A stretch of DNA of 64,000 nucleotides from Escherichia coli. Its GTDB lineage: Bacteria; Pseudomonadota; Gammaproteobacteria; Enterobacterales; Enterobacteriaceae. The notes below the pieces were generated by a model. It was not told where the DNA came from and made no database searches. It saw nothing but the letters and a program-made list of their open reading frames with translations. The first letter of the stretch is position 1, and the number at the start of each line of letters is the position of its first letter. Location: assembly GCF_044324875.1 (NCBI RefSeq), contig NZ_CP172186.1; one strand, 5' to 3'. This document shows, piece after piece, positions 4,632 through 21,380 of this stretch. The translations under genes and the position numbers were made by a program.

Positions 4632-4687
4632 TGACGCTGGCGGGGAAAAATCTCCGCCTTTTCCAGCCGGTCCCCGGAAAGAGCAAA

Positions 4688-5040
4688 AGGATGTCGCCGC
4701 AGGCTCCGCTTTACTCGGCCATGCGGGGCATGGCCTTGTGGGTTTTCAGTTATGTGGCCTCAGCGTCGTGTGCGGGCTGTGCCGTGCCTCCATCGTAGCC
4801 GGGCTTCTGCGGGCGGGTTGCAAGGTAAGGTGAACCGCTGCGGTCACCCGGTCCCTCCTTCCCGTCTGCCGTGATTTTCCGGTCGTTCACCCGCTCAGAT
4901 TTCGCGGTCTCACCCTCCAACTCCCGCCAGCCGTGTGCGTCAGGCTGCGGCTTCCCTTGCGCCCTTGCAACCCTGCAGGCCCGGCAAAGATGGAGGCACG
5001 GCACCGCCCGGTGTCGCGGAATATGTGAACAACGGAGGAA
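4688..5040 (+). promoter_or_regulatory. single-strand-promoter-like structured element, family A copy 1 (upstream of klcA)
   Basis: ~350-bp GC-rich element with long-range inverted repeats (TGCCGTGCCTCCATC ... GATGGAGGCACGGCA), near-identical to 16918..17275. Confidence 0.5.
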
Positions 5041-5045
5041 ATCCC

Positions 5046-5471
5046 ATGCAGTATGCGAAACCTGTCACCCTGAACGTTGAAGAGTGCGACCGCCTTTCTT
5101 TTCTGCCTTACCTGTTTGGCAACGATTTTCTGTATGCCGAGGCGTATGTGTACGCGCTGGCGCAAAAAATGATGCCGGAATATCAGGGAGGCTTCTGGCA
5201 TTTCATCCGCCTGCCGGACGGTGGCGGTTACATGATGCCGGATGGCGACCGTTTTCATCTGGTCAACGGTGAAAACTGGTTTGACCGCACTGTGAGTGCT
5301 GATGCCGCAGGCATCATTGTTACGTCTCTTGTGATTAACCGCCAGTTGTGGCTGTACCACGACAGCGGGGATGCGGGACTGACACACCTGTACCGGATGC
5401 GTGATGCGCAGTTGTGGCGTCACATCGAATTTCACCCCGAATGCAACGCGATTTACGCGGCACTGGACTGA
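5046..5471 (+). CDS. klcA: antirestriction protein KlcA/ArdB family
   Basis: 141 aa from MQYAKPVTLNVEECDRLSFLPYLFGNDFLYAEAYVYALAQ..., recalled KlcA/ArdB signature. Confidence 0.75.
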   Translation: MQYAKPVTLNVEECDRLSFLPYLFGNDFLYAEAYVYALAQKMMPEYQGGFWHFIRLPDGGGYMMPDGDRFHLVNGENWFDRTVSADAAGIIVTSLVINRQLWLYHDSGDAGLTHLYRMRDAQLWRHIEFHPECNAIYAALD

Positions 5472-5517
5472 TTAACGGACGGGGCGGCAATGCCGCCCCT
5501 GTAAAGGAGACGAGAAC

Positions 5518-5937
5518 ATGTACTGTACTGTTAAAGAAATTATCCGCGAAGTGCTGAATACAGACGTGCCGGACAGTGAATGTGTTTTTGCCGTGGTGCT
5601 GACCCGCGGGGATGTGCGCCACATAGCCCGGGACTGGAACCTGTCAGACGATGAGCTGGAAACCGTCATGCAGCGGCTGGACGATGCTTTTGTATATGGC
5701 GCATGTGACAGAGTTGTTTCCGATATTGTCAATGAACTGATGGAGGAAAAGCGCGTAAACCGTCTTGTAACAGTTCCTGCGGTGCTGCTGGAAAAAGTGA
5801 TGGTGATGGCTGGTAGTGAAATTTATCGCCTCCATGCTGTAGGGAGCGAGAACGGGGGCGACGGTGACGCATTTGTCAGGGAAGAACGTGAGATTATGCG
5901 GGTAATGCGTCAGGCGCTGGACGGGGAGAACGGGTAA
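5518..5937 (+). CDS. leading-region hypothetical protein (paralog of 3382..3816)
   Basis: 139 aa; RBS GGAGACGAG. Confidence 0.6.
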   Translation: MYCTVKEIIREVLNTDVPDSECVFAVVLTRGDVRHIARDWNLSDDELETVMQRLDDAFVYGACDRVVSDIVNELMEEKRVNRLVTVPAVLLEKVMVMAGSEIYRLHAVGSENGGDGDAFVREEREIMRVMRQALDGENG

Positions 5938-6128
5938 TGAATATCAGCACGGAAACCCGCGAAATTCTGCGTAATTACAGGGCCGTGATTAATGCGCGGC
6001 GTCGTGAAATGGGGCAGAAACCGCTCACCACCGCGCAGATTGTTGATGAAATCTGTGATTTTGTGGCGAATCAGCAGGCGGTTTTCCTCGGTGGTCACTA
6101 TATCCTTCAGGGCAGCAGGCACAGGTGA
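5937..6128 (+). CDS. hypothetical small protein
   Basis: 63 aa, start overlaps previous stop. Confidence 0.35.
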   Translation: MNISTETREILRNYRAVINARRREMGQKPLTTAQIVDEICDFVANQQAVFLGGHYILQGSRHR

Positions 6129-6289
6129 TACAGGGGCAGGCGGTGGAGGCCGCCTGTCAGCCCGCGCGAAAACCCCTGGCAGGCTGGCGCCTGCCGGAAG
6201 GGATGCGGGCCACGCTGGCGCGTCGCCCGTTACCCTTCCTGTTGGTGACAGGCGTTGTTTCAGGAAGTACCTGTTACAGACCTGTCGTT

Positions 6290-6875
6290 AAAGAACCTTC
6301 TTACACATGCGCCCCTTCGGCTCCCGGCTGCCTGGCGGCATCCGGTCGTCAGGCCCGACTCCGACAGGCAGCTGCTGGCGCACCCGCCAGTCTCCGCCGA
6401 ACCCGCTGGCGCGGTTTCGGGCTGTCGCTACGGTCCGATGCGTGAAAACCCGGGCTTGCAGCGACCGTTCCGGTCGCGCCGCCTCTGTCGCGCCGTGACC
6501 TGCGCTCCCTGCACACCTGACGGTGTGTGAGGAAACTGCGCCTGATGGCGCAGCAGTCCTCCCTCCTGCCGCCACCTCTGCGGCCTGTTTCCCGCTGTGG
6601 ACTTTCCGGGGGGCAGACGTAACCCCCTCCCGTTCCATCTGTCCAGGGTGAGATGCACCGGCCACAAAATTTTTAGCCATGAACCCGGCAAAAAATTTTG
6701 CGTCCGCCCCCGGACAGCTGCCCCGTGAGGCGGTAAACGGGCCCCCATCGGAAAGGTCCACTGCGGGGAGAAACCCCTGTGAAGTGGACGGCAGGAGGAG
6801 CTTTCGCTCCTCTGAAGGGGCACATGAACGTCCCGTCGCCGGTATCCGGTTTATCTCACATCTTTCAGTCAGGAG
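6290..6875 (+). promoter_or_regulatory. single-strand-promoter-like structured element, family B copy 1 (upstream of ssb)
   Basis: ~580-bp GC-rich repeat also found at 17935..18505 and, 3' part only, 20990..21380; contains CCACAAAA(C/T)TTTT...GCGTC(C/T)GCCCCCGGACA(G/A)CTGCCCCGTG core. Confidence 0.5.
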
Positions 6876-6881
6876 GTTCTT

Positions 6882-9800
6882 ATGAGTGCACGTGGTATCA
6901 ACAAGGTCATCCTCGTCGGGGTGCGCCGTTGAAGCGCGGTGTTTTATGGAGTGTTGCCTGAAAAGCAACATGGCTTAGTGGTATAGCCATTGCATACTGT
7001 GGTTAGCCTTGCTTGGTAACAGGCTCGGAGATCCTGAAAAGGAGAGGTGAACATAGCATCCACAGAAAAGGGTGGTGAATATGGAAATCGTTATAAGTAT
7101 CACCATTCAATGCAAGATGTATATGGATAAACTGGGTTTGTTGAAGTCGAGATCTATGTGGGAAACAGGAAACCAATAACGCAGAACGATTGAAGCGTTA
7201 TTCCCGTACTAGCACAAGAAATCCGTCCGACGTTGATTGTGACCACTCTAACGGGCCAGCTATTGATGAAATAGTTAAACGATCGAAAGACATCCTAAGT
7301 ACATCGCATCTCCACACCGTGAAACTACGGGACTACCTAAACTGGATTTATACCCAGCATGGTAGCGGAGTCTCCATAGTACTCAAGGTCGGCCTGTAAT
7401 GGGTTCCGGCAGTCCGCATTATACGGAAGCAGCAAAGGTATAAATCAACCGGAAGGAAGATGAAAGCCTCACAGTGCTGCGGGGAAGGGAGACAGTTGTT
7501 AGATACATCAATCTCTAAGAGGAGGGTTAGCCAATGCTGCCTGATGAACTTGAGAAAAGATTAGATGGAATTGAGGATGCTTCAAAAAAAGGGTATCCAG
7601 TACGTAATCTATACAAAATTGCGTGTGAGCCCGGACTGTGGCTGCAAGCCTACGTGAATATACGGGCCAATGCAGGTGCACTGACTCAAGGTGTATCAAC
7701 AGATACCATTGATGGCTTTTCTATCGAAAGAGCAGAGAAGCTGGCAAAAACATTGCGGAGTAGAGAATACGTAGCGAAACCTGTACGCAGAGTTCAGATC
7801 CCAAAAAAGGACGGAAAAACCAGACCGCTGGGGATTCCAGGTGGAGACGATAAACTGGCGCAAGAAGTAGCAAGAATTATTCTGGAAAGGGTTTATGAAC
7901 CAGTATTCTCTGAACACTCTCATGGATTCAGACCAAAACGTTCGTGTGAAACTGCGCTCAGATCTATTCGTCCAGTCTGGAACGGAGTTAAATGGATCGT
8001 GGATGTTGATATCAAAGGTTTCTTTGACAATATCCCCCACAAACTATTGCTGAATACACTGGCAGAGAAAATTAAGGATAAGAATTTCCTGAAATTAATC
8101 GAACAGTGGCTGAAGGCAGGATATGTGGACAATTGGAAATACCATCGCTCATATTCTGGCACGCCACAAGGTGGGATAATTTCTCCCTTACTGGCAAATA
8201 TATACCTCGACAAACTGGACCGTTTTGTAGAACAGAATTTAATTCCTGCATATACAAGCGGTACAAAACGAAGAGCGAATCCAGATATGAACAGGCTGGC
8301 CCATAAGATTCATAAACTACGAAAGAAAGTAGACGGTATGGCAACTGATTCTGAATCAGAAAAAGAAGCCATAAAGAAAGAAATTGAACGACTGCTTGAA
8401 GAAAAACGTTCTATACCATCTCAGGTCATGAACGATCCAAACTTCAGGCGTATGTACTATGTTCGATATGCTGATGACTTCGTAATCGGTGTCATCGGCT
8501 CGAAGAAAGATGCTGAACATATATCAAGACAGGTCAGAAACTTTATTACTACTTCACTGGGATTGGAAGTTAATGAAGCAAAGACCAGGATCCGCCATAT
8601 CTCAGAAGGAGTTAATTTTTTAGGCTATGAAATCAGACAGGCAGATGCAAAGAAATTGCTGAAGCAGAAAATGCAAGGGCGGCACGCTCTCCGGAGATCC
8701 ACCACAGGAATTGTGCAGCTCTTCGTTCCTGACAATATAGCCGCTAAATTTTGTCACCAAAAGAAATATGGCTGTTATGAGAATGTGAAGGCTGTACATC
8801 GTTCAAGTCTACAAAATCTCAGTGAAGCTGAAATTGTTCTGACTTTCAACGCGGAAATGCGCGGATTGGCGAACTACTACAGTCTGGCGCTGGACATGAA
8901 ATATAAATTATCAAAATTATATTTCATATGGCAAATAAGCCTTTTTAAGACCCTGGCGAATAAACGACGTAGTTCAGTGAATAAAGTCGCCAAATCGCTA
9001 CGGCAAAATAATGGAGATCTGGCTATTACCGTTCAGGCCAAAAATGGATCCCGAAAGATTGAGGTTTTCAAACTCAAACATGTCAATCGCAACCGAACAA
9101 CGATTGTCGATACGGAACCGAGAACCGCACATATCACAACCCGCACAACAGAGATCATGCGTCGATTAGGGGCAAGGATCTGCGAGTATTGTGCGAAGAC
9201 TGGGCGCTGCGAAGTACATCATGTCAGAAAGCTAAAAGACCTGAAGAAAGGTCGTAAGGCCGGATATAAACCCAGCTTGTGGCAACTAATGATGATCGCA
9301 CGCCGCCGGAAAACGATGATTTTGTGCGCAAGTTGCCACGACAAGTTACATAGCGGAAAACTACCCGATTTGAGACAGGAAAAGGGAAGAATACTCCTGC
9401 AACCACCTGTCTCAAGCGGGGATTCTGCTAAATGAGTTTATCCCCAATAAGCTAGCAATGGAGAGCCGTATGCACTGAAAGGTGCACGTACGGTTCGGAG
9501 GGGGGGTAACGGTGATCTAACTCAAGATAAGCAGGACATATTCGCCATTTATCTTGAAAGACCACACGTACCCTACCCTACCGTCTGGGCAATGATCCGG
9601 AAGTCTGTTACATCCCCAACGGGGGCGCAGTGGCAAACCTGCAGGTCGCCACGTCAGAAAGCTGGCGCGACAAACAGACGGGGGAGATGCGGGAGCAGAC
9701 GGAATGGCACCGCGTGGTGCTGTTCGGCAAGCTCGCGGAAGTGGCTGGTGAATATCTGCGCAAGGGCGCGCAGGTCTACATCGAGGGGCAACTCCGTACC

Positions 9801-10064
9801 CGTAGCTGGGAGGATAACGGTATCACCCGTTACGTCACTGAAATTCTTGTTAAGACCACGGGCACCATGCAGATGCTGGGGAGTGCACCACAGCAGAACG
9901 CTCAGGCGCAACCGAAGCCTCAGCAGAATGGGCAGCCACAGAGTGCTGACGCGACGAAAAAAGGTGGCGCGAAAACGAAAGGCCGTGGACGTAAGGCCGC
10001 GCAGCCGGAGCCTCAGCAGCCGTCTGAACCCGCGTATGACTTCGATGACGACATTCCGTTCTAA
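6882..10064 (+). CDS. ssb: plasmid single-stranded DNA-binding protein, split by a group II intron (exon 1 6882..6920, exon 2 9582..10064)
   Basis: Exon 1 [13 protein letters not shown]; exon 2 [35 protein letters not shown]...DDIPF; exons are in frame and together match the plasmid SSB N-terminus. Confidence 0.8.
7534..9435 (+). CDS. group II intron-encoded reverse transcriptase/maturase with HNH endonuclease domain
   Basis: 633 aa; RT motifs [31 protein letters not shown]; C-terminal CEYC...HHV...CASCHDKLH zinc/HNH motif. Confidence 0.9.
   Translation: MLPDELEKRLDGIEDASKKGYPVRNLYKIACEPGLWLQAYVNIRANAGALTQGVSTDTIDGFSIERAEKLAKTLRSREYVAKPVRRVQIPKKDGKTRPLGIPGGDDKLAQEVARIILERVYEPVFSEHSHGFRPKRSCETALRSIRPVWNGVKWIVDVDIKGFFDNIPHKLLLNTLAEKIKDKNFLKLIEQWLKAGYVDNWKYHRSYSGTPQGGIISPLLANIYLDKLDRFVEQNLIPAYTSGTKRRANPDMNRLAHKIHKLRKKVDGMATDSESEKEAIKKEIERLLEEKRSIPSQVMNDPNFRRMYYVRYADDFVIGVIGSKKDAEHISRQVRNFITTSLGLEVNEAKTRIRHISEGVNFLGYEIRQADAKKLLKQKMQGRHALRRSTTGIVQLFVPDNIAAKFCHQKKYGCYENVKAVHRSSLQNLSEAEIVLTFNAEMRGLANYYSLALDMKYKLSKLYFIWQISLFKTLANKRRSSVNKVAKSLRQNNGDLAITVQAKNGSRKIEVFKLKHVNRNRTTIVDTEPRTAHITTRTTEIMRRLGARICEYCAKTGRCEVHHVRKLKDLKKGRKAGYKPSLWQLMMIARRRKTMILCASCHDKLHSGKLPDLRQEKGRILLQPPVSSGDSAK
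9461..9494 (+). ncRNA. group II intron domain V (catalytic hairpin)
   Basis: 34-nt hairpin GAGCCGTATGCAC-TGAAAG-GTGCACGTACGGTTC matching the domain V pattern. Confidence 0.65.
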
Positions 10065-10119
10065 CGAAAGACAGTGACAACCGCCCCGTCCAGTGCGGGG
10101 CATCACCGGAGAGATGAGG

Positions 10120-10353
10120 ATGAGCGAATATTTCAGAATACTTCAGGGACTGCCTGACGGTCCTTTTACCCGCAAACATGCCGAAGCCGTTGCCGCACAG
10201 TACCGGAATGTCTTTATCGAGGATGATCAGGGAACGCATTTTCGCCTGGTTGTCCGCAATAACAGTGGCCTGGTCTGGCGTACCTGGAATTTTGAGGACG
10301 GTGCCGGGTACTGGATGAACCATGCCATCCGTGATTTCGGCATTCTTAAGTAA
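10120..10353 (+). CDS. hypothetical small protein
   Basis: 77 aa from [10 protein letters not shown] (internal start of 10093..10353 ORF) after GGAGA RBS. Confidence 0.45.
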
Positions 10354-10416
10354 GAGAGGTGCCGGACGGGAACGCGTCCGGCAGACATACAACCATCCCG
10401 GTCAAAGGAGAAATAT

Positions 10417-12375
10417 ATGTCAGTTACAGAGTCTAAGACAAAAACGGAGCGTAAATCCAGCCGTAAACCTGCAAAAACGCAGGAAACCGTCCTGTCAGCC
10501 CTGCTGGCGCAGACGGAGGAAGTGAGCGTGCCGCTGGCCTCGCTGATTAAATCACCGCTGAATGTGCGCACGGTGCCGTATTCTGCGGAGTCTGTCAGCG
10601 AACTGGCGGACTCCATTAAAGGTGTCGGCCTGTTACAGAATCTGGTTGTTCATGCCCTGCCAGGTGACCGTTACGGTGTCGCCGCAGGCGGTCGCCGACT
10701 GGCTGCACTCAACATGCTGGCAGAGCGTGGCATCCTTACGGCTGACTGGCCTGTACGCGTGAAGGTTATTCCGCAGGAGCTGGCGACTGCCGCATCAATG
10801 ACTGAAAACGGTCATCGTCGGGATATGCACCCTGCTGAACAGATCGCCGGATTCCGCGCAATGGCGCAGGAAGGCAAAACACCTGAGCAGACTGGCGACC
10901 TGCTGGGCTATTCACCCCGCCACGTCCAGCGAATGCTGAAACTGGCAGACCTTGCACCCGTCATCCTTGATGCGCTGGCAGAAGACCGCATCACCACCGA
11001 ACACTGTCAGGCGCTGGCGCTGGAGAACGACACCGCGCGTCAGGTGCAGGTGTTTGAAGCCGCCTGCCAGTCAGGATGGGGCGGTAAACCGGATGTGCGG
11101 GTTATCCGCAACCTGATTACCGAAAGTGAAGTGGCGGTGGCGGGGAACAGTAAATTCCGCTTCGTGGGGGCTGATGCCTTCTCGCCAGACGAACTGCGCA
11201 CCGATTTGTTCAGCGATGACGGGGACGGTTATGTCGACCGCGTGGCGCTCGATGCCGCCCTGCTGGAAAAACTCCAGGCTGTCGCTGAACACCTTCGGGA
11301 AGCCGAAGGCTGGGAATGGTGCGCCGGGCGCATGGAGCCTGTCGGTGAGTGCCGTGAGGATGCCGGAACATACCGCTGTCTGCCGGAGCCGGAAGCGGTG
11401 CTGACGGAGGCGGAATACGAACGCCTGAACGAACTGATGACGCGTTACGACGCGCTGGAAAACCAGTGTGAGGAATCCGACCTGCTGGAAGCAGAAATGA
11501 AGCTGATGCGCTGCATGGCGAAGGTCAGAGCGTGGACGCCGGAGATACGTGCCGGAAGCGGTGTGGTGGTGTCCTGGCGTTATGGCAACGTATGTGTCCA
11601 GCGTGGTGTGCAGTTGCGCAGTGAAGATGACGCGACTGACGACGCTGACCGCACGGAACAGGTGCAGGAGAAAGCGTCAGTGGAGGAAATCAGCCTGCCG
11701 TTGCTGACGAAAATGTCCTCAGAGCGCACGCTGGCAGTCCAGGCGGCACTCATGCAGCAGCCGGACAAATCCCTGACACTGCTGGCATGGACGCTCTGCC
11801 TGAATGTGTTTGGCAGCGGGGCGTACAGTAAACCAGCACAAATCAGCCTGGAATGTGAACATTATTCGCTGACCAGCGATGCGCCATCGGGGAAGGAAGG
11901 TGCCGCATTCATGGCGCTGATGGCAGAAAAATCCCGTCTTGCAGCCCTGCTGCCGGAGGGATGGTCACGGGACATGACGACATTCCTGTCCCTCAGTCAG
12001 GAGGTGCTGTTATCCCTGCTCAGTTTCTGCACCGCATGCAGCCTTAACGGTGTCCAGACCCGTGAGTGTGGTCACACGTCACGCAGTCCGCTTGACTCGC
12101 TGGAAATCGCTATCGGATTCCACATGCGCGACTGGTGGCAGCCGACAAAAGCAAACTTCTTCGGACACCTGAAAAAGCCACAAATTATCGCAGCCCTGAA
12201 TGAGGCCGGACTGTCCGGTGCCGCACGGGACGCGGAGAAGATGAAGAAAGGTGATGCGGCTGAACATGCAGAGCACCATATGAAAGACAACCGCTGGGTT
12301 CCAGGCTGGATGTGTGCACCACATCCACAGACAGATGCCACTGAACGCACCGATAACCTGACTGATGCCGCCTGA
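10417..12375 (+). CDS. ParB/Srx-like nuclease-domain protein (large leading-region ParB-like protein)
   Basis: 652 aa; N-terminal ParB-like box ...VPLASLIKSPLNVRTVPY...GLLQNLVVHAL...GGRRLAALNML... Confidence 0.75.
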   Translation: MSVTESKTKTERKSSRKPAKTQETVLSALLAQTEEVSVPLASLIKSPLNVRTVPYSAESVSELADSIKGVGLLQNLVVHALPGDRYGVAAGGRRLAALNMLAERGILTADWPVRVKVIPQELATAASMTENGHRRDMHPAEQIAGFRAMAQEGKTPEQTGDLLGYSPRHVQRMLKLADLAPVILDALAEDRITTEHCQALALENDTARQVQVFEAACQSGWGGKPDVRVIRNLITESEVAVAGNSKFRFVGADAFSPDELRTDLFSDDGDGYVDRVALDAALLEKLQAVAEHLREAEGWEWCAGRMEPVGECREDAGTYRCLPEPEAVLTEAEYERLNELMTRYDALENQCEESDLLEAEMKLMRCMAKVRAWTPEIRAGSGVVVSWRYGNVCVQRGVQLRSEDDATDDADRTEQVQEKASVEEISLPLLTKMSSERTLAVQAALMQQPDKSLTLLAWTLCLNVFGSGAYSKPAQISLECEHYSLTSDAPSGKEGAAFMALMAEKSRLAALLPEGWSRDMTTFLSLSQEVLLSLLSFCTACSLNGVQTRECGHTSRSPLDSLEIAIGFHMRDWWQPTKANFFGHLKKPQIIAALNEAGLSGAARDAEKMKKGDAAEHAEHHMKDNRWVPGWMCAPHPQTDATERTDNLTDAA

Positions 12376-12429
12376 TGAACAACCACACCGCCCCGCCGGA
12401 GACGGGGCGGCAGCAAGGGAGATACCGTG

Positions 12430-12864
12430 ATGAAAACTGAACTGACCCTGAATGCCCTGCAGTCCATGAACGCACAGGAATATGAAGATATCCGTGCTGC
12501 GGGAAGCGATATGCGCCGTAATCTCACTCACGAGGTGATGCGTGAAGTGGACGCACCGGCTAACTGGATGATGAATGGCGAGTATGGCAGTGAGTTCGGG
12601 GGCTTTTTCCCCGTCCAGGTTCGTTTCACGCCAGCCCACGAACGTTTCCACCTGGCATTATGTTCGCCGGGAGACGTCTCTCAGCTCTGGATGCTGGTTC
12701 TGGTGAGTGGTGGTGGACAGCCTTTCGCCGTCGTTCAGGTGCAACATATCTTCACGCCTGTCGCGATCAGTCACACGCTGGCGCTCGCCGCGACACTTGA
12801 TGCGCAGGGATACAGTGTTAACGACATCATTCATATTTTGATGGCAGAAGGAGGTCAGGCATGA
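12430..12864 (+). CDS. psiB: plasmid SOS inhibition protein PsiB
   Basis: 144 aa [27 protein letters not shown]...[32 protein letters not shown]...; near-identical to recalled PsiB. Confidence 0.9.
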
Positions 12865-13071
12865 GCGCATGCAAAATGGCATCTGAATCGATCGCAGTTT
12901 GGCATTCGAATCGATCATGATTTGGCATCCATCTCCGATCACAGTTTGGCATCACAATCGATCACGATTTGGCATGCTTCCGATCATTGATTGGCATCCT
13001 GCCAGTCACTCCGGGAATTAACTCTTTTCACCACAGTCTCCATTGCCGTGTTTAAACCAGTGGAGACGTCA

Positions 13072-14637
13072 ATGTCCAGAAAGAGAAAATCCAGGAGCAC
13101 TATGGAAACCTGTTTTAAGATCCTTCAGCTCAAGTTCGACAAGAAGCTGACTAACCGTTGTATCGGACTGACGTTACACATCAGCGCCTCAACCGTTTTT
13201 GAGGTTCTTGCCCGCTTCAAAGCCTCTTCTCTGTCATGGCCATTACCTGCTGATATATCCCATGACACGCTGGAGAAACTCATTTTTCCGCCCAAAGACA
13301 CCTTTGCATCAGAGCTTGTAATGCCTGACATGTTGTACTTCGATACGGAAATGAGAAAACCAGGTGTGACGCGGCAACTGTTGTGGATGGAATACAAGGC
13401 ACAGGCGGGTAACAAAGCGATGGGATACTCGCACTTCTGCCGTTGCTACCGGGAGTGGAAAAAAACGCGACGTCTCTCCATGCGCCAGGAGCATCGTGCC
13501 GGCGAAAAGCTTTTTATCGACTTCTGTGGTCCTACGGTTCCTGTTATTAATCCGGACACCGGTGAGATACGCCGCGTGGCAATCTTCGTGGCCGTAATGG
13601 GGGCGTCCAACTATACCTACGTTGAAGCGTGCGAAGGTCAGGACATGATGTCATGGTTAAATGCCCACAGCCGTTGCCTGACCTTCCTGGGCGGCGTACC
13701 GAAGCTGCTCATCCCCGATAACCTCAGAAGCGCAGTGAAAAAGGCCGATCGATATGAGCCTGTCATCAACGACAGTTATCAGGCACTGGCTGAGCACTAT
13801 GGCACGGTTATCATCCCGGCCCGACCACGCAAACCTAAAGATAAACCAAAAGCAGAAAACGGCGTCCTCATCGTTGAACGATGGCTTCTTGCCCGCATCC
13901 GTAATGAAACCTTCCACACGCTCAGGGCGCTGAATGCGCGCCTTAGGGAGTTACTGACAGACATGAATAACCGGCCAATGAAGGGGTACGGCAATCAAAC
14001 CCGTGCAGAACGCTTCCGCATACTGGATGCGCCAGCACTCTCTCCGCTGCCTCTGGCACCTTATGAATACACGGAATACAAAGCTGTGAAGGTTGGCCCT
14101 GACTACCACGTTGAATATGCCCGTCACTGGTACTCCGTTCCACACGAACTGGTCGGTCAGCGTCTGTCACTGAAGGCGGGGCAGTCGGTGGTACAGCTCT
14201 GGCACAAGGGGCAGTGTGTGGCGCAACATCCGCGCAGCACACATGAATATAAACACACAACCAATCCGCTTCACATGCCAGAGCGCCACCGGCAGCACGG
14301 GACATGGACACCGGAACGCCTGATCGAGCAGGGAAAACGTACGGGCCCGTCCACAGGCCGGGTGGTTGAATCCATGCTGAAGGCAAAACCCCATCCGGAA
14401 CTGGCTTATCGTGCAGTTCTGGGGCTGCTGGCACTTCAGAAAAAATACGGCCCGGAACGGCTGGAAAAGGCCTGTTACGTTGCCCTGCACTATAACGCCC
14501 CTGACAGACGCTTTATCGACAATCTGCTGCGTCACCATCGGGAGAACCTGGAGCTTCCATTATCCCGCCAGGGCGAACAACATCCGGCATATGCTTCAGA
14601 GCATGAAAACCTGCGTGGTCCGGGCTACTACCACTGA
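13072..14637 (+). CDS. istA: IS21-family transposase IstA
   Basis: ~521 aa, HTH N-terminus and DDE integrase core; start chosen at MSRKRKS after GGAGACG RBS. Confidence 0.85.
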   Translation: MSRKRKSRSTMETCFKILQLKFDKKLTNRCIGLTLHISASTVFEVLARFKASSLSWPLPADISHDTLEKLIFPPKDTFASELVMPDMLYFDTEMRKPGVTRQLLWMEYKAQAGNKAMGYSHFCRCYREWKKTRRLSMRQEHRAGEKLFIDFCGPTVPVINPDTGEIRRVAIFVAVMGASNYTYVEACEGQDMMSWLNAHSRCLTFLGGVPKLLIPDNLRSAVKKADRYEPVINDSYQALAEHYGTVIIPARPRKPKDKPKAENGVLIVERWLLARIRNETFHTLRALNARLRELLTDMNNRPMKGYGNQTRAERFRILDAPALSPLPLAPYEYTEYKAVKVGPDYHVEYARHWYSVPHELVGQRLSLKAGQSVVQLWHKGQCVAQHPRSTHEYKHTTNPLHMPERHRQHGTWTPERLIEQGKRTGPSTGRVVESMLKAKPHPELAYRAVLGLLALQKKYGPERLEKACYVALHYNAPDRRFIDNLLRHHRENLELPLSRQGEQHPAYASEHENLRGPGYYH

Positions 14638-14653
14638 CAGAAGGAACAACAGT

Positions 14654-15409
14654 ATGAGTGATAACCTGTTAAACAAACTGACCCAACTGAAACTCCCGGC
14701 GATGGCCGGGAGCCTGATACGGCAGCGGGAAACGCCTCAGACCTACGACGAACTGTCGTTCGAGGAAAGGCTGACGCTGCTGGTTGATGACGAGCTTCTG
14801 AGCAGGGAAAACAGCCGTGTGGCACGGTTGAGAAAAAATGCCGGCCTGAAATACCAGGCAACACCGGAAGGGCTGCGCTATCCGGCCTCAAGAGGTCTGC
14901 GGGCTGAACAGATGAGAGAACTGCTGAACGGCCACTACATAACCCACAGGAAAAACCTGCTGATAACCGGTCCGACAGGATGTGGCAAGAGCTGGATAGC
15001 CAATGCGCTGGGCGAACAGGCATGTCGACAGAAACACAGCGTCCGGTACTGTAGAACCGGGCGATTACTGGAACAACTGGCTCAGGGACGTGTTGATGGC
15101 AGCTGGCTGAAATATCTGAAACAGTTGCAAAAAATACAGGTTCTAATCCTGGACGATCTGGGGCTGGAACAGTTAAGTAACGCCCAGTGTAATGACCTTC
15201 TGGAGCTCATAGAGGATCGTTACGGACAAAGCAGCACGATAGTGGTAAGCCAGTTCCCGGTAGATAAATGGCATGGTCTGATGGAGAACCCAACAACAGC
15301 AGATGCCATCCTGGACAGACTGGTACATAACTCACACCGAGTGGTCCTTCAGGGAGAGTCACTGAGGAAAAATCCCCCGGTAGTGGAAAGCAGCGAAAAA
15401 ACGCGTTAA
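14654..15409 (+). CDS. istB: IS21-family helper ATPase IstB
   Basis: 251 aa; Walker A LLITGPTGCGKSW, Walker B ILILDDLG. Confidence 0.9.
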   Translation: MSDNLLNKLTQLKLPAMAGSLIRQRETPQTYDELSFEERLTLLVDDELLSRENSRVARLRKNAGLKYQATPEGLRYPASRGLRAEQMRELLNGHYITHRKNLLITGPTGCGKSWIANALGEQACRQKHSVRYCRTGRLLEQLAQGRVDGSWLKYLKQLQKIQVLILDDLGLEQLSNAQCNDLLELIEDRYGQSSTIVVSQFPVDKWHGLMENPTTADAILDRLVHNSHRVVLQGESLRKNPPVVESSEKTR

Positions 15410-15509
15410 AAAGCGGTAGAAAAAGTTAAGTTCCCGGTTGATCGAATGGATGCGAATCGCTGATCGGACTTCGATGCCAATCCGTGATCGAATAGAGCGG
15501 AATACGCAA

Positions 15510-16225
15510 GCGCACGTTCACGGGCACTGATCCCCCTCAGCGCAGAACAACAGGCCGCTATGCAGGCTGTGGCTGTCACCGAACAACGTCGTCGTCAGGG
15601 ACGCACACTTTCAGCATGGCCTTATGCCACCGCTTTCTTTCGCTGCCTGAATGGCAGTCGCCGGATTTCGCTGACCGATCTCCGCTTTTTTGCCCCTGCG
15701 CTGACGAAGGAGGAATTTCATGGCAACCGTCTCCTGTGGCTGGCTGCAGTGGACAAACTGATTGAAAGTTTTGGTGAAGTCTGTGTTCTTCCCCTGCCAT
15801 CCGATGCGGGGCATCGTTTGTTCCCGTCCGTTCCTTTTCGTGAAGGTGAGCGGCGTCGTCAGAAAACCACGCTGACAGAGCAGAAATACAGCCGCCAGCG
15901 GGAACGTGAGGCAGAACGACGGGAACGGGAATACCAGACATGTTTTGCTCAGGCGCAGATTGACCTTGCGTTTCATACTCCCGCCACGGTCGGAAGCTGG
16001 TTGTCCCGCTGGTCTGGTGTTGTTGAGGAGCATGATCTGGAAACGATTTTCTGGGGGTGGTGCGGGCGTTTTCCATCACTGTCATCATTTGACCGGTTTT
16101 TCTGGCAGGAGGAACCACTCTGGCGGTTGATTTTTGAAGCCGGTGAGGCCGGTCGTGGTGCACCGGTACAGGTACGTGCACTTGAGCAGTGGATGATCCC
16201 GAACAAGCTGGAGAACGTAATATGA
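15510..16225 (+). pseudogene. psiA: plasmid SOS inhibition protein PsiA, separated from its first three codons (12861..12869) by the IS21-family insertion
   Basis: Joining ATGAGCGCA to the sequence after the IS gives MSARSRALIPLSAEQQAAMQAVAVTEQRRRQGRTLSAWPY..., matching PsiA. Confidence 0.8.
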
Positions 16226-16818
16226 TGAAATCAGACGAAAAATACCAGGTTCCCGCGTGGATGCGACCTCTGTTGCCGTTGCTCTGCAACACCGGGGAGA
16301 ACGATCCGGAAGAACTGCTGAATGATACAGAAACCACTGCCAGTGCGAATGTTGTCCGTTATGTGCTGATAGTTGCTGTGCGGTCGCAGGTTGATCTGCT
16401 GCAGCTTCTGTACAGGAAAGGGCTGTTGCGCACAGAGATACCAGGTGGCTTTTCACCGGAAGAAGCGCAGGAACTCCTGGATAATCTGGTGCGCAGCCAT
16501 ATCAGCAGGGCGCTGTCGGGTGAGCGAATGGCAGCCCGTGACAGGAATGCCGATCTGGCCTGGATTCGACAGCAACTGGTCGATGCCGCCTGGTTTGTCC
16601 GTGCCACACTGGAAGCGCATGGGATGAGCGTCGGAAATGAGAGTCCCCCTGCTCAGCCGGAGACAATGCCGGACATACAGACACGGGAACTGGTGATGTT
16701 GATCAAGCGACTGGCATCATCGCTGAAAGCGGTGAAACCGGACAGTTGTGTGGTGCGTGAAGCGCAGGACTGGCTGCGCGACAGAAAACTTGTGAGCATC
16801 ACGGATGTTCTTCGGTGA
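16222..16818 (+). CDS. leading-region hypothetical protein
   Basis: 198 aa from MMKSDEKYQ; start overlaps psiA stop. Confidence 0.55.
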   Translation: MMKSDEKYQVPAWMRPLLPLLCNTGENDPEELLNDTETTASANVVRYVLIVAVRSQVDLLQLLYRKGLLRTEIPGGFSPEEAQELLDNLVRSHISRALSGERMAARDRNADLAWIRQQLVDAAWFVRATLEAHGMSVGNESPPAQPETMPDIQTRELVMLIKRLASSLKAVKPDSCVVREAQDWLRDRKLVSITDVLR

Positions 16819-16917
16819 ACCAGTGGAGGTATGCTTGAGGAGCAGGGACATGCCGGCCATGATCGTTTCGTTCCAGGGGTGGTCTGGAGATCATGCGGCG
16901 TGTCCTCTGCACTCGCC

Positions 16918-17275
16918 GGAATAAGGACGTCGCCGCCGGCTCCGCTTTTACCCGGCCATGCGGGGCATGGCCTTGTGGGTTTTCAGCTCTGTGGCCTCAG
17001 CGTCGTGTGCGGGCTGTGCCGTGCCTCCATCGTAGCCGGGCTTCTGCGGGCGGGATGCAAGGTAAGATGAACCGCTGCGGTCACCCGGTCCCTCCTTCCC
17101 GTCTGCCGTGATTTTCCGGTCGTTCACCCGCTCAGATTTCGCGGTCTCACCCTCCAACTCCCGTCAGCCGTGCGCGTCGGGCTGCGGCTTTCCTTGCGCC
17201 CTTGCATCCCTGCAGGCCCGGCAAAGATGGAGGCACGGCACCGCCCGGTGTCGCAGAACATGTGACTATGGAGGA
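16918..17275 (+). promoter_or_regulatory. single-strand-promoter-like structured element, family A copy 2 (upstream of ardA)
   Basis: Near-identical to 4688..5040. Confidence 0.5.
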
Positions 17276-17282
17276 TTCGGGA

Positions 17283-17783
17283 ATGTCTGTTGTTGCACCT
17301 GCTGTATACGTTGGAACCTGGCACAAATATAACTGCGGAAGCATCGCCGGCCGCTGGTTTGACCTGACCACGTTTGATGATGAACGCGATTTTTTCGCCG
17401 CCTGCCGTGCCCTTCACCAGGATGAAACCGATCCGGAACTGATGTTTCAGGATTATGAGGGTTTCCCGGGGAATATGGCCTCTGAATGTCATATCAACTG
17501 GGCCTGGGTTGAAGGCTTCCGCCGGGCACGGGATGAAGGCTGCGAAGAGGCTTATCGTCTCTGGGTGGATGATACCGGTGAGACGGATTTTGACAGCTTC
17601 CGCGATGCCTGGTGGGGCGAGGCTGACAGTGAGGAGGCTTTTGCGGTTGAGTTCGTCAGTGATACCGGCCTGCTGGCTGACGTGCCGGAGACGGTGGCGC
17701 TCTATTTTGACTATGAGGCGTATGCGCGGGATTTATTCCTGGACTCCTTCACCTTTATTGACGGTCATGTGTTCCGTCGGTGA
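17283..17783 (+). CDS. ardA: antirestriction protein ArdA
   Basis: 166 aa MSVVAPAVYVGTWHKYNCGSIAGRWFDLTTFDDE...; acidic DNA-mimic, matches recalled ArdA. Confidence 0.9.
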   Translation: MSVVAPAVYVGTWHKYNCGSIAGRWFDLTTFDDERDFFAACRALHQDETDPELMFQDYEGFPGNMASECHINWAWVEGFRRARDEGCEEAYRLWVDDTGETDFDSFRDAWWGEADSEEAFAVEFVSDTGLLADVPETVALYFDYEAYARDLFLDSFTFIDGHVFRR

Positions 17784-17934
17784 TTTACTCCCCCGCTCCG
17801 GCGGGGGTATGGCCTGCCGGGCCGCCGGAAAACCCTGGCAGGCTTACGCCTGCCTGAAATACAGGAGGGCCGCGCCTGCGGCGCTGCCCTTCCTGCCCGT
17901 CATGGTGTGAGGCATTTTTCTGTTTTGTCGTTTC

Positions 17935-18505
17935 TGTTGTTCTGATGCCCGGAGGCGGGGACACCCTTCGGCTCCCGGCTGCCTGGCGGCATCCGGTCGT
18001 CGGCCCGACTCCGACAGGCAGCTGCTGGCGCACCCGCCAGTCTCCGCCGAACCCGCTGGCGCGGTTTCGGGCTGCCGCTACGGTCCGATGTCTGAAAAAC
18101 CAGGCCTGCAGCGACCGTTCCGGTCGCGCCGCCCCTGTCGCGCCGGAAACGGCGCTCCCTGCACACCTGACGGTGTGTAAGGCCACTGCGCCTGATGGCG
18201 CAGTCAACCCTTCCGCCGCCACCCCTGCGGCCTGTTTCCCGCTGTGGACTTTCCGGGGGCTGAAGCGGCCACAACACGGGGCAGCCGTCCAGGGGAGAGA
18301 TGTACCAGCCACAAAACTTTTTGCCGCAGGCGTCAAAAACTTTTGCGTCTGCCCCCGGACAACTGCCCCGTGCCGTGGCAGTCGCTGCCCCATCGGAAAG
18401 GTCCACTGCGGGGAGAAACCCCGAAGAAGTGGACGGCAGAAGGGGCTTTCGCCCCTCCGGGGGAGCAACCGGTCGGCCCGGCGACCTGATTCAGCAGAAG
18501 GAGAC
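17935..18505 (+). promoter_or_regulatory. single-strand-promoter-like structured element, family B copy 2
   Basis: Near-identical to 6290..6875. Confidence 0.5.
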
Positions 18506-18511
18506 GTTTTC

Positions 18512-18946
18512 ATGACAGTCAGCAGCACGATTTCCGTTTTTTGCCGAGACGGGGTGTTCCGTACCGTTTACTGCCACCTGCACGGTGAGCCGACCTGGAA
18601 CGGTCGCATCCTGCATACCCACTATGCCACCGGTCAGCTGGCCGAAGCCCTGGTTGAACACGGAGATATCCGTTGCCTCGGTCCCCGTTGCGACAAACCC
18701 GCCGGGCATACGCTTCAGAACCCGGTGGACGGTGTGACGGCTTATTACGGACGTGACAGTGGTTTCCGGATGGACAGTGAGGCGCGTGAGTACCGTTCTT
18801 TCAGGGAGGCTATTGCCACTGAAAGCACTGAAGAGGTGCGCTTCCATTATGTGTTCATCGACGGCTACTGGAAGGTGATGTACCGCACGCCGGAAGGCTG
18901 GAAGATGAAAGCGCTCGCGCTGGCACTGCGTCGCTGTCCGGAATGA
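18512..18946 (+). CDS. hypothetical protein directly downstream of a family-B element
   Basis: 144 aa from MTVSSTISVFCRDG; GAAGGAGACG RBS; the long 17945..18946 ORF upstream of this start is the repeat element read in frame. Confidence 0.6.
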   Translation: MTVSSTISVFCRDGVFRTVYCHLHGEPTWNGRILHTHYATGQLAEALVEHGDIRCLGPRCDKPAGHTLQNPVDGVTAYYGRDSGFRMDSEAREYRSFREAIATESTEEVRFHYVFIDGYWKVMYRTPEGWKMKALALALRRCPE

Positions 18947-19037
18947 AAAAAAGCAGGGCGATAAACCCTGCCTCTCTCCGCCGCTGCTTCCCGGCCAGGA
19001 AGAGCGGCAGTCATCAACAACATAAGGAGAAATATTT

Positions 19038-19304
19038 GTGAGACCATCAATTATCTTCGCAACCGCCGAGTATGTAAAGCGTCTGCGTGAAGAGTGCCTG
19101 CGGGAGAATAAACCCCTGCACCGCCATACCCGCTTCAGACGTCAGGAGCTGGCACAGGATGAGATTAACCCGGACGTCCTGGCGATGAGCGGTCATATCG
19201 CCAGACGCTGCAGTGAGCAGAAGCGGGTGCGTATCCCCGCCATGAAAGTCAGCGAATGGGGCCACCTGCTCCGCGCGCTTGAAATTGAACGGGTCTGTCA
19301 CTGA
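19038..19304 (+). CDS. hypothetical small protein (GTG start)
   Basis: 88 aa; AAGGAGA RBS 8 nt upstream. Confidence 0.4.
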   Translation: MRPSIIFATAEYVKRLREECLRENKPLHRHTRFRRQELAQDEINPDVLAMSGHIARRCSEQKRVRIPAMKVSEWGHLLRALEIERVCH

Positions 19305-19368
19305 TTAACCCTTGCCGTCTGCCTGTGCAGGCGGCAGGATACGTTCAGACATCTCACCAGGAGGAACC

Positions 19369-20247
19369 GTGAGTAAGAAGAAAAACACCACAACGCCCAC
19401 GCCGCATGATGCCGCGTTCCGGTCGTTCCTGGCGAATCCCGACGTTGCCAGGGATTTTCTGGAGTTGCATCTTCCTGCGGAGTACCGGCAGTTGTGCGAC
19501 CTGTCCACCCTGAAGCTGGAACCCGCCACCTTTGTTGAGCCGGACCTGCATCAGTACGCCAGCGATATCCTCTGGAGTGTGAAAACCACCGGGGGTGAAG
19601 ACGGCTATGTTTATACGCTCATCGAGCACCAGAGCACCGAAAATCTGTACATGCCTTTTCGCATGTTACGTTACAGTGTGGCGGCGATGCAGAGACATCT
19701 GGAGCAGCACAAAACGTTGCCACTGGTCATTCCGGTGCTGTTCTATCACGGTGAGCGCAGCCCGTACCCGTACAGCATGAACTGGCTGGACTGTTTTGAG
19801 AATCCGGCACTTGCGGCTAAAATATACACAAAGCCGTTTCCGCTGGTTGATATCACTGTCGTTGATGACAATGAAATCATGAACCATCGCCGGATGGCCG
19901 CACTGACGCTGCTGATGAAGCATATCCGCCATCGTGACATGATGGAGCTGCTGGACAAACTCCCGCAGGTCATGGTGGAAATTTCAGACGAGCAGGTGCG
20001 TGTTCTGATTCATTACATCGTTAACGCAGGGGACACTGTATCACCGGAATTTATGCGGGCGCTGGCCGAGCGCCTGCCGCAGCATGAGGATAAACTGATG
20101 ACAATCGCAGAACGTCTTGAGCAGAAAGGTGCGCTTGAAAAAGCCCTGGCCATTGCGCGTCAGCTTCAGAAAATGGGGATGACACCTGAGCAGATTAAGC
20201 AGGCCACCGGACTTTCCGAAGCTGAACTGAAAAAAGTCATTCACTGA
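19369..20247 (+). CDS. rpn: Rpn-family (YhgA-like, PDDEXK) recombination-promoting nuclease
   Basis: 292 aa from GTG after AGGAGG RBS; ...TPTPHDAAFRSFLANPDVARDFLELHLP...DILWSVKT...YTLIEHQSTENLYMPFRMLRYSVAAM... typical Rpn N-terminal nuclease domain. Confidence 0.8.
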   Translation: MSKKKNTTTPTPHDAAFRSFLANPDVARDFLELHLPAEYRQLCDLSTLKLEPATFVEPDLHQYASDILWSVKTTGGEDGYVYTLIEHQSTENLYMPFRMLRYSVAAMQRHLEQHKTLPLVIPVLFYHGERSPYPYSMNWLDCFENPALAAKIYTKPFPLVDITVVDDNEIMNHRRMAALTLLMKHIRHRDMMELLDKLPQVMVEISDEQVRVLIHYIVNAGDTVSPEFMRALAERLPQHEDKLMTIAERLEQKGALEKALAIARQLQKMGMTPEQIKQATGLSEAELKKVIH

Positions 20248-20259
20248 TGAGAGCATCAC

Positions 20260-20285
20260 AGCCCGGCAAAATGCCGGGCTTTTTG
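20260..20285 (+). terminator. intrinsic terminator after rpn
   Basis: AGCCCGGCA-AAA-TGCCGGGCT followed by TTTT. Confidence 0.5.
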
Positions 20286-20308
20286 CCAGCAGGAGCAGAG
20301 CAAACAGC

Positions 20309-20527
20309 ATGACGATTGCAGAACGTCTTATACAGAAAGGTTTCGACGAGGGTTTTAAAGAAGGTTTTAAACAAGGTTTTAAACAAGGTTTTAAACAAGG
20401 AGCTCTTGAAGTGGCGCGGGAAATAGCCTGCCGGCTTCGGGATATAGGCTGGTCGCCGGAACGGATTCAGGAGGTCACGGGACTTTCCGGTGAAGAACTG
20501 AAAAAGCTGTTTCCTGATGAGCAGTAG
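20309..20527 (+). CDS. free-standing Rpn C-terminal-tail (RpnS-like) small protein with GFKQ repeats
   Basis: 72 aa MTIAERLIQKGFDEGFKEGFKQGFKQGFKQGALEVAREIACRLRDIGWSPERIQEVTGLSGEELKKLF; parallels the last ~50 aa of the upstream Rpn (MTIAERLEQKGALEKALAIARQLQKMGMTPEQIKQATGLSEAELKKVIH); AGGAG RBS. Confidence 0.65.
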   Translation: MTIAERLIQKGFDEGFKEGFKQGFKQGFKQGALEVAREIACRLRDIGWSPERIQEVTGLSGEELKKLFPDEQ

Positions 20528-20557
20528 CCTGGCATTCAGCCAGGCTGTGAATCACGC

Positions 20558-20809
20558 TCACACATCCTCTGCCGTTTCCCCCAGTTCATTTTCCAGTCGC
20601 CTGATGATATCTGCCTTACGCATCCCCTGCATGTGAGGCAGCAGGTCACGGACTGAAAGTGCCTGGGTGGTCCTCCAGACGGTGACGTCCACCTGTTCCG
20701 CATTTTCCCAGGCGTGCCATGTTCTCTGCGTCACGCCAAATTCTCTGGCCGCTTTTTCGCGTGACCAGAGCATGCTTTTTCGCCAGATTCGCAGTTCCCA
20801 TCCGGTCAT
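20558..20809 (-). CDS. putative helix-turn-helix regulator
   Basis: 83 aa; ...WSREKAAREFGVTQRTWHAWE... HTH-like segment; AAGGTG RBS. Confidence 0.5.
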   Translation of the reverse strand: MTGWELRIWRKSMLWSREKAAREFGVTQRTWHAWENAEQVDVTVWRTTQALSVRDLLPHMQGMRKADIIRRLENELGETAEDV

Positions 20810-20823
20810 AAAACACCTTTGAA

Positions 20824-20908
20824 AAAGTGAAAAAACTTCACTTTATTTTATCATCACAATTGCCAAATCAGCGCGATAAATAAGTGTAAAAAAGTGAAGA
20901 AATTTCAC
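20824..20908. promoter_or_regulatory. two palindromic operator-like sites AGTGAA-N5-TTCACT
   Basis: AAAGTGAAAAAACTTCACTTT at 20824..20844 and AAAGTGAAGAAATTTCACTTT at 20890..20910, upstream of the minus-strand HTH gene. Confidence 0.45.
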
Positions 20909-20989
20909 TTTTTTTGGTTGTAAATGTCGTGCGGTTTTCTCTGTTTTCACCTGTGCGGGAGTGGTGTGCCAGTGACCACCACATGCCAT

Positions 20990-21380
20990 TGTTGTGCCGT
21001 CGTTTTTCTTCAGTCGCGCCGGATGCGGCGCTCCCTGCACACCTTACGGTGTGTAAGGCCACTGCGCCTGATGGCGCAGCTGCCTCTGCCTGTCTGCCGC
21101 CGCACTGCGGCCTGTTCTCCGCAGACGGACTTTCCGGGGGTACATACACGACCACATCCCGTTTCAGTCGTCCAGGGGAGAGATGTACCAGCCACAAAAC
21201 TTTTTGCCGCAGGCGTCAAAAACTTTTGCGTCTGCCCCCGGACAACTGCCCCGTGACGTGGTGAGCGTCCCCCGTCGGAAAGGTCCACTGCGGGGAAATC
21301 CCCGAAGACCCGGACGGCAGAAGGAGCTTCGCTCCTCCGGGAAATGACCTGGCTGACCCGGCAGTCGTGACGATGAGGAG
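20990..21380 (+). promoter_or_regulatory. single-strand-promoter-like structured element, family B copy 3 (3' two-thirds only)
   Basis: Matches the 3' part of 6290..6875 and 17935..18505. Confidence 0.45.

Follow-up and report, generated by a model that had tools for sequence, protein, structure and literature searches.

Five copies of two structured repeat families lie immediately 5' of genes in a 64,000-nt stretch of Escherichia coli DNA (hereafter the window), which raises the question of whether these repeats are promoters that become active on the incoming single strand during conjugation, as the initial annotation had proposed, and which genes they would serve.

Two repeat families in a conjugative leading region

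The window comes from an IncK2/Z (I-complex) plasmid of E. coli and represents its leading region; it shares 99.4% identity with pLH50-c-A and is collinear with ColIb-P9 and pESBL. The origin of transfer lies on the minus strand:

22790-22850, minus strand: oriT core, an inverted repeat followed by CACATCCTG^T

The nick probably falls between 22800 and 22799 of the minus strand, given that the motif at ~22800 matches the established IncP/IncI nick-region consensus. The leading-region genes are all on the plus strand, and the position of the nick motif on the minus strand makes this strand both the transferred (T) strand and the template of the leading genes. The repeats, in order of position, are as follows:

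4687-5039, minus strand: Family A copy 1 (A1), class 2 (ssp2-type), 5' of a klcA/ardB-type antirestriction gene (ATG at 5046)
6313-6483, minus strand: upstream extension outside the published ssi core, common to B1 and B2
6484-6815, minus strand: Family B copy 1 (B1) core, class 1, orthologue of ColIb-P9 ssi3/Frpo3, 5' of ssb (ATG at 6882)
16923-17275, minus strand: Family A copy 2 (A2), class 2, 5' of ardA (17283-17783)
18134-18461, minus strand: Family B copy 2 (B2) core, class 1, orthologue of ColIb-P9 ssi2/Frpo2, 5' of a 144-aa ORF (18512-18946)
21010-21341, minus strand: Family B copy 3 (B3), complete core, class 1, orthologue of ColIb-P9 ssi1/Frpo1, 5' of a DUF4942 gene (21386-22237)

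Both families and all five copies are thus present essentially where the initial annotation had placed them, with a similarity far beyond chance, and a self-comparison of the 64-kb window revealed no further Family A or B copies. The two Family A copies share 94.9% identity over 354 nt (E = 3e-159). B1 and B2 match at 86.4% over 501 nt (6313-6812 and 17964-18457), so that the similarity spans ~500 bp and not the ~580 bp given initially, and B3 (21010-21341) is 80-85% identical to the other B copies over ~333 nt. This third copy had been described as partial; it is in fact a complete ssi core of ~330 nt and lacks only the ~170-nt upstream extension, which in B2 occupies 17964-18133. A module at 6425-6520 within the extension region of B1 is highly conserved among IncF and IncI plasmids.

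The remaining descriptive claims hold. The elements have a GC content of 0.63-0.68, and each Family A copy contains inverted 32-nt arms 174 nt apart (4773-4804/4979-5010 in A1 and 17010-17041/17216-17247 in A2). The downstream genes are likewise those initially assigned, namely a klcA-type gene, ssb, ardA, the 144-aa ORF and the gene for the 283-aa DUF4942 protein; when the 144-aa and 283-aa products were searched against NCBIfam and Pfam, DUF4942 in the latter was the only match. Each copy is followed within 7-70 nt by a ribosome-binding site and start codon; for Family A, 7 nt separate its end from the ATG at 5046 or 17283. The class 1 elements lie 1.5-16 kb from the nick, and their downstream genes have the T strand as template. 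At Rfam gathering thresholds no family covers the repeat elements, and matches elsewhere in the window comprise sok, ALIL, a group II intron and AgrB.

Counterparts in ColIb-P9, pESBL and F

The Family B cores correspond, in the T-strand sense, to Frpo1/2/3 (ssi1-3) of ColIb-P9 (Samuel et al. 2024, Suppl. file 4), and they occupy the same three sites, before DUF4942, the 144-aa ORF and ssb. Class 1 comprises these ColIb-P9 elements together with Frpo1 (ssiD) and Frpo2 of F (Masai & Arai 1997; Bates et al. 1999; Couturier et al. 2023; Wen et al. 2025), and gene positions are equivalent in ColIb-P9, pESBL and F. Identity to the pESBL orthologues is 93-99.5%, whereas identity to F Frpo is partial (70-80% outside a 70-nt module); the hairpin architecture, with an A/T-rich apex, a paired CTGGAC and a bulged CATYT, is common to Family B and F Frpo1/2. 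We find no essential difference between Family B and known class 1 elements; in the window, the ssi3/ssb operon contains an intron and an IS21-family element (see below).

Family A is homologous to the candidate Frpo'4 of Samuel et al. 2024, and its positions match those of the class 2 single-stranded DNA promoters 5' of klcA and ardA (Wen et al. 2025, PMC12672017). In ColIb-P9 and pESBL, too, klcA and ardA each have a counterpart on their 5' side, and in F the counterpart (ssp2) precedes yfgB. The overall hairpin is the same as in known class 2 elements, with shared motifs GCCGTG...CCGGGC, GACCGGGTGA, TTG, GCCCGGYTAnnnT and GGCACGGC. Identity to pESBL is about 89-90%, and the block between the candidate -35 and -10 boxes is a different allele.

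The function of these orthologues has been established experimentally. In pESBL transconjugants, transcription starts of class 1, 2 and 3 promoters, including the counterparts of all five repeats, were mapped by 5'-RACE, and RNA-seq showed their induction (Wen et al. 2025, PMC12672017); deletions of Frpo1/2 abolish early expression (Couturier 2023); and an anti-CRISPR under Frpo control is effective only when placed on the T strand of the leading region (Samuel 2024). Given this orthology, together with the T-strand folding and covariation described below, the five repeats are very probably single-stranded DNA promoters of a conjugative leading region, in line with the Frpo/ssi-type reading of the initial annotation. 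The finding is correct but ordinary, since the repeats are hairpin promoters that, like their gene assignments, have already been published.

Frpo was originally isolated as the priming signal ssiD, and ssp1/Frpo transcripts prime conversion in vivo, while at the class 2 hairpin of F (ssp2) complementary-strand synthesis stalls at the stem end until UvrD acts (2026 preprint, bioRxiv 10.64898/2026.01.09.698686, which reports both the ssp2 roadblock and ssp1 priming). These observations could suggest that the repeats serve mainly in single-strand initiation and replication control, with Family B supplying RNA primers and Family A forming a roadblock that times duplex conversion, and are not promoters. 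We consider this very improbable. Priming or roadblock roles and a promoter role are not mutually exclusive, deletion of the elements abolishes downstream expression, and transcription start sites map inside them (Couturier 2023; Wen et al. 2025); moreover, purely priming or stalling elements would not need to sit so regularly just before a ribosome-binding site and start codon. By analogy with the promoters studied in the related plasmids, the alleles of this plasmid are expected to start transcription, with zygotic induction, and to act in priming and as roadblocks.

Strand-specific folding and candidate promoter boxes

The fold check proposed with the initial annotation was carried out, and in all five copies the fold of the transferred strand is more favourable than that of the plus strand. 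The Family B cores reach dG values of -104 to -119 kcal/mol on the T strand, with z scores of -8.9 to -11.6, and are 16-18 kcal/mol more stable there than on the plus strand; over all Family B folds the z scores against dinucleotide shuffles range from -8.9 to -12.6. For Family A the T-strand fold has a dG of -91 to -92 kcal/mol and z scores of -4.4 to -4.9 against dinucleotide shuffles, with an advantage of 4-7 kcal/mol. Mirroring the same fold architecture onto the plus strand costs 20-27 kcal/mol. A GC-corrected sliding fold scan recovers all three B copies and a further hairpin, C3 (see below); in its fixed 300-nt windows Family A reaches z scores of only about -1.2 to -1.9, and the sliding scan alone would therefore miss this family.

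The stems also covary. In Family A, both partners have changed in 22 of 80 pairs, where shuffles give 7.0 +/- 2.0 and slid controls 2-7; in class 1 the same is true for 15 of 36 consensus pairs.

The two classes differ in how far promoter boxes can be recognized in the stem, where the initial annotation had anticipated both -35 and -10 hexamers. A scan of all elements on both strands for TTGACA-N16-19-TATAAT with at least 8/12 matches yielded no hexamer pair, and no duplex sigma-70 promoter-like site with at least 9/12 matches is present on the plus strand in or beside any element. The strict scan missed the class 2 boxes because these match the consensus at only 8/12 positions with a bulged 20-nt spacer; they were recognized solely through conservation in alignments. 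The predicted features of the two class 2 hairpins are:

4773-5010, minus strand: A1 promoter hairpin, with candidate -35 TTGCAA at 4818-4823 and candidate -10 TACGAT at 4792-4797
17010-17247, minus strand: A2 promoter hairpin, with candidate -35 at 17055-17060 and candidate -10 at 17029-17034

All bases of the -35 TTGCAA are paired; those in the middle of the -10 TACGAT are unpaired. TTG and TAnnnT, both on the non-template arm, are invariant in all eight aligned class 2 sequences, and from these alignments the candidate class 2 boxes appear weak but phylogenetically invariant. The duplex version of class 2 reads AAAGAT with a 15-nt spacer. In A1, transcription is predicted to start at ~4997-4999, on the template arm.

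The spacers on the non-template and template arms measure 20 and 15 nt in the window but 15 and 19-20 nt in pESBL, ColIb-P9 and F, and the -10 is TACGAT in the window's allele versus TAAGAT in these three plasmids. As read from the alignments, class 2 comprises two alleles, and the additional nucleotides that separate -35 from -10 fall on one arm of the stem in the first and on the other arm in the second. Such opposite-arm bulges suggest that the conserved feature is the geometry of a bulged helix and not the linear spacer. Among PLSDB records, 1390 carry the window's allele, which is therefore common. Its spacer differs from that of the allele with a mapped start site, and its promoter activity is accordingly putative.

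In Family B, the paired CTGGAC(A) and the A/T-rich apex are conserved in class 1, and the former is a candidate -35-like box, whereas no recognizable conserved -10 hexamer was found in class 1, the corresponding position being an internal loop of variable sequence. Reconstituted boxes can be recognized for both hexamers in Family A; in Family B the paired CTGGAC is a candidate -35 only. The main hairpin of B1 spans ~6562-6798, with the apex at 6665-6705 and the paired TGGACA (candidate -35) at 6640-6645; those of B2 and B3 span ~18208-18444 and ~21090-21321. A TTGACG on the 5' arm of F Frpo was also considered as a -35 and ruled out, as it is absent from the IncI-type copies.

Strand preference and covariation also bear on whether the repeats could be passive products of duplication or gene conversion, or structures acting at the RNA level in the mRNA, such as terminators or 5'-UTR elements. 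Both Family A copies of one plasmid carry the same allele while orthologues differ, which points to gene conversion, and the 5' part of A1 includes a terminator-like hairpin on the plus strand (4722-4740). The folding advantage, however, is on the minus strand and not on the mRNA strand, the long stem has been kept through compensatory changes, and IncF, IncI1 and IncK plasmids all retain the elements next to the same genes. Furthermore, were transcription to start where predicted, on the 3' side of the stem, the mRNA would include just a single arm of this class 2 hairpin. This explanation is therefore highly improbable.

Additional hairpins, an interrupted operon and timing of expression

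The initial annotation offered the copy-to-gene assignment as a guide to which genes are expressed earliest in the recipient. Its five assignments stand, but the guide is incomplete, because two extra hairpins are present and two mobile elements disrupt the operon that follows B1:

959-1123, minus strand: hairpin D, a short diverged relative of class 2, 5' of a DUF1281 gene (start at 1154 or 1178)
2181-2405, minus strand: hairpin C3, candidate for the published class 3, immediately 5' of an M.EcoGIX-type methylase gene (2463-3146)
6921-9581, plus strand: group II intron, splitting ssb after codon 13, inside the B1-driven transcript
12870-15508, plus strand: IS21-family element (istA, istB), in codon 3 of psiA, in the same operon as ssb

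C3 folds strongly and is 98% identical to pESBL and 95% identical to F; the methylase gene that it precedes is orthologous to M.EcoGIX, the gene behind the published class 3 promoter (ssp3). A hypothetical-protein ORF at 2077-2388 overlaps C3 and is doubtful: it is frameshifted in F, and two stem pairs change compensatorily. Hairpin D has TTGCAT-N15-TAACGT on the non-template arm, with a mismatched -10 and the same invariant arms as class 2. It could, judging by these features, represent a previously undescribed seventh single-stranded DNA promoter. Alternatively, hairpin D could itself be the published class 3, in which case class 3 would be a relative of class 2 and the hairpin at 2181-2405 would be the undescribed element. 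A total of seven T-strand promoter-type hairpins in this leading region, compared with six published for pESBL and five in the initial annotation, is accordingly a tentative count that we regard as somewhat doubtful.

With ssb and psiA both interrupted by mobile elements, the ssi3-driven operon is probably impaired.

In the proposed mechanism, the minus strand would enter the recipient 5' end first, from the nick near 22800, so that B3, at ~1.46 kb from the nick, is the first single-stranded DNA promoter to enter. Each element on the incoming strand would fold into a long imperfect hairpin whose stem rebuilds a duplex -35 box and a partly mismatched -10 box, which would leave the -10 already half melted. 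Host sigma-70 RNA polymerase could then bind the hairpin, transcribe its 5' arm and continue into the downstream operon, until synthesis of the complementary strand flattens the hairpin and switches the promoter off. Transcripts from Family B (Frpo/ssi, class 1) may also prime complementary-strand synthesis, and a stall at class 2 elements, as in F, would prolong the single-stranded interval.

The value of the window is confirmatory only, in that its elements and gene assignments agree with experiments on pESBL, ColIb-P9 and F. Through such hairpin promoters, anti-restriction, SOS-inhibition and single-stranded DNA-binding functions are timed to the first minutes after transfer; the promoters are therefore of interest for understanding how resistance plasmids become established after entering a new host.

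Repeat families, gene order and the transferred strand

The initial annotation described two repeat families in five copies, each upstream of a leading-region gene, and read them as Frpo/ssi-type single-strand promoters. Both families are borne out by alignment: Family A occurs at 4687-5039 and 16923-17275 (94.9% identity over 354 nt), with 32-nt arms lying 174 nt apart in both copies, and Family B at 6313-6812 and 17964-18457 (86.4% over 501 nt), with a third copy at 21010-21341 (80-85% over ~333 nt). This third copy had been called partial; the whole ~330-nt core is present there and only the upstream extension is absent. No further copies of either family were found in the whole 64 kb window.

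Thousands of enterobacterial conjugative plasmids match the window, the nearest being E. coli pLH50-c-A (99.4%), which types as IncK2/Z, MOBP and MPF_I. The genes listed below lie collinear with those of ColIb-P9 and pESBL and, from klcA to psiB, with those of F.

Gene order from ~1 kb to ~26 kb
DUF1281, a doubtful ORF, DNA methylase, three small genes
klcA-type antirestriction gene, three small genes
ssb, DUF905, ParB-like gene, psiB, psiA, one ORF
ardA, 144-aa ORF, two small ORFs, rpn
HTH gene (opposite strand), DUF4942
mobC (opposite strand), oriT, nikA, nikB

In the mobC-nikA gap, the minus strand carries an inverted repeat followed by CACATCCTG^T, which we take to be an IncP/IncI-type nick region. 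Because this region is read on the minus strand, the minus strand is the transferred strand (T strand); it therefore exits oriT toward lower coordinates and is the template for every plus-strand leading gene. This assignment is supported by the position of ColIb-P9 Frpo1 in AJ238399 (1459-1787), which equals the distance of the third B copy from the window nick.

Two smaller features were also noticed. An AT-rich 26-nt inverted repeat at 20822-20913, which may be an operator region, sits between the third B copy and the divergently oriented HTH regulator gene on the minus strand (20558-20809). The first 33 nt (20309-20341) of the small ORF at 20309-20527, which follows rpn, repeat an rpn-internal segment (20098-20130) at 85% identity.

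Published counterparts and folding

Samuel et al. list ColIb-P9 Frpo1, Frpo2 and Frpo3 in a supplementary table; read in the T-strand sense, these are the counterparts of the B3, B2 and B1 cores, respectively. A computational candidate in the same table, Frpo'4, is plainly homologous to Family A, with which the weaker candidates Frpo*1 and Frpo*3 also align. Wen et al. 2025 (PMC12672017), using RNA-seq and 5' RACE in pESBL transconjugants, distinguish three classes: ssi1-3 together with the Frpo elements form class 1, a pair of similar hairpins preceding klcA and ardA forms class 2, and a hairpin preceding M.EcoGIX is class 3; start sites are reported for all six promoters. Couturier et al. 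2023 saw early expression lost on deletion of Frpo1/2. Family A is thus class 2 and Family B class 1, and the interpretation in the initial annotation is the published one.

Identity of the five copies to pESBL
B1, before ssb: 98.8%
B2, before the 144-aa ORF: 93.1%
B3, before DUF4942: 99.5%
A1, before klcA: 89.2%
A2, before ardA: 89.9%

ColIb-P9 and pESBL match the window in having three B and two A copies, located before the same genes. In F, Family A occurs once, 5' of the klcA homologue, and the other two elements are Frpo2 (5' of ssb) and Frpo1 (5' of ygeA). In a 2026 preprint (bioRxiv 10.64898/2026.01.09.698686), the class 2 copy of F is named ssp2; its hairpin also stalls complementary-strand synthesis, which is primed by ssp1/Frpo transcripts, until resolved by UvrD.

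Folding of the transferred strand, the check proposed with the initial annotation, gave a stable hairpin for all five copies. Under DNA parameters, each of them is far more stable than its dinucleotide shuffles, and the T strand is always the more stable, by 4-7 kcal/mol in Family A and 16-18 kcal/mol in the B cores; mirroring the T-strand architecture on the plus strand loses 20-27 kcal/mol. Among eight class 2 sequences (two each from the window and ColIb-P9, one from F and three metagenomic candidates), both sides had changed in 22 of 80 consensus pairs, against 7.0 +/- 2.0 for column shuffles and 2-7 for structures slid by 1-3 columns. For class 1 the figure was 15 of 36 pairs in a ten-sequence alignment. 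A plus-strand search within and next to every element found no duplex sigma-70-like site scoring 9/12 or better. Orthologues, published start sites, T-strand folding and covariation all support the single-strand promoter reading.

Promoter anatomy of the two classes

In the class 2 T-strand hairpin, the 3' arm is the acting non-template strand, on which TTG, then GCCCGGY, TAnnnT and GGCACGGC are kept in all eight sequences.

Promoter hexamers of A1
4818-4823, T strand: -35, TTGCAA, fully paired
4792-4797, T strand: -10, TACGAT, central bases unpaired

In duplex form the -10 site reads AAAGAT with a 15-nt spacer. Judged from sequence, a paired -35, a part-unpaired -10 and this duplex reading would suit a promoter active only as a folded single strand. 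Starts are predicted ~7 nt beyond the -10, near 4997-4999 (A1) and 17234-17236 (A2), which would give leaders of roughly 48 nt with a GGAGG ribosome site.

In the window allele, found in 1390 plasmid records, the non-template spacer is 20 nt long and bulged at two places, with 15 nt on the template arm, whereas ColIb-P9, F, pESBL and a further hairpin, D (959-1123), have 15 nt on the non-template and 19-20 nt on the template arm; the extra nucleotides thus lie on opposite arms. Both window copies (4773-5010 and 17010-17247) share one allele of the -35/-10 spacer block, and the ColIb-P9, F and pESBL orthologues share another. That the two copies of a plasmid have the same allele points to gene conversion, a case of concerted evolution. 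The Family A repeat opens with ~85 nt that hold a plus-strand terminator-like hairpin (4722-4740; GGCCATGC-GGG-GCATGGCC, then a T-rich run) that probably ends the upstream operon, making the repeat a terminator-plus-promoter cassette.

The class 1 hairpin has an A/T-rich, UP-like apex, a conserved unpaired CATYT and a paired CTGGAC(A) that is likely the -35. The -10 is expected in an internal loop of variable sequence; no class 1 hexamer pair reached at least 8/12, and the -10, not recognisable by sequence, rests on published mapping. The upstream extension, common to B1 and B2, falls outside what was published as the cores. It includes a ~96-nt module just upstream of both cores (6425-6520 and 18075-18170), absent from B3; more than 5000 plasmid records contain it at 90% identity or higher, usually in two or three copies per plasmid. 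Between F and the window this module is more conserved than the promoter hairpin proper. The functional Frpo2 construct of Samuel et al. does not contain it.

Insertions downstream of B1 and additional hairpins

Two insertions set the window apart from pLH50-c-A, both within the operon driven by B1.

Insertions in the B1 operon
6921-9581: group II intron, 2661 bp, after codon 13 of ssb
7534-9435: ltrA of the intron
9461-9581: domain V Rfam match
12870-15508: IS21-family element, 2639 bp, in codon 3 of psiA
12991-14637 and 14411-15409: istA and istB

The assignment of B1 to ssb depends on splicing: the intron lies inside the expected ssi3-type transcript of the interrupted gene, and SSB can be made only if it splices. 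The IS21-family element disrupts psiA; its flanks overlap by 6 bp, and its terminal repeats account for the direct repeats at 12866-12980.

Two T-strand hairpins further upstream had been missed, each 95-98% identical in F, ColIb-P9 and pESBL. The first, C3 (2181-2405), lies directly 5' of the M.EcoGIX-type methylase gene, has a z of about -6 and shows two compensatory pairs (2321/2349 and 2416/2426) among these relatives. An annotated Arg-rich hypothetical ORF (2077-2388) overlaps C3 and is doubtful because it is frameshifted in F. Hairpin D lies 5' of the DUF1281 gene, itself frameshifted in F; it is ~70 nt shorter than class 2 but aligns with all invariant class 2 blocks, with TTGCAT-N15-TAACGT and a mismatched -10. 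Presumably one of the two is the published class 3, probably C3, and the other would be undescribed.

Both the observation of the repeats and their interpretation have been published before, and experiments on near-identical orthologues support them. What may be new is confined to the extra class-2-like hairpin, the two class 2 spacer alleles and the unexplained conserved module.
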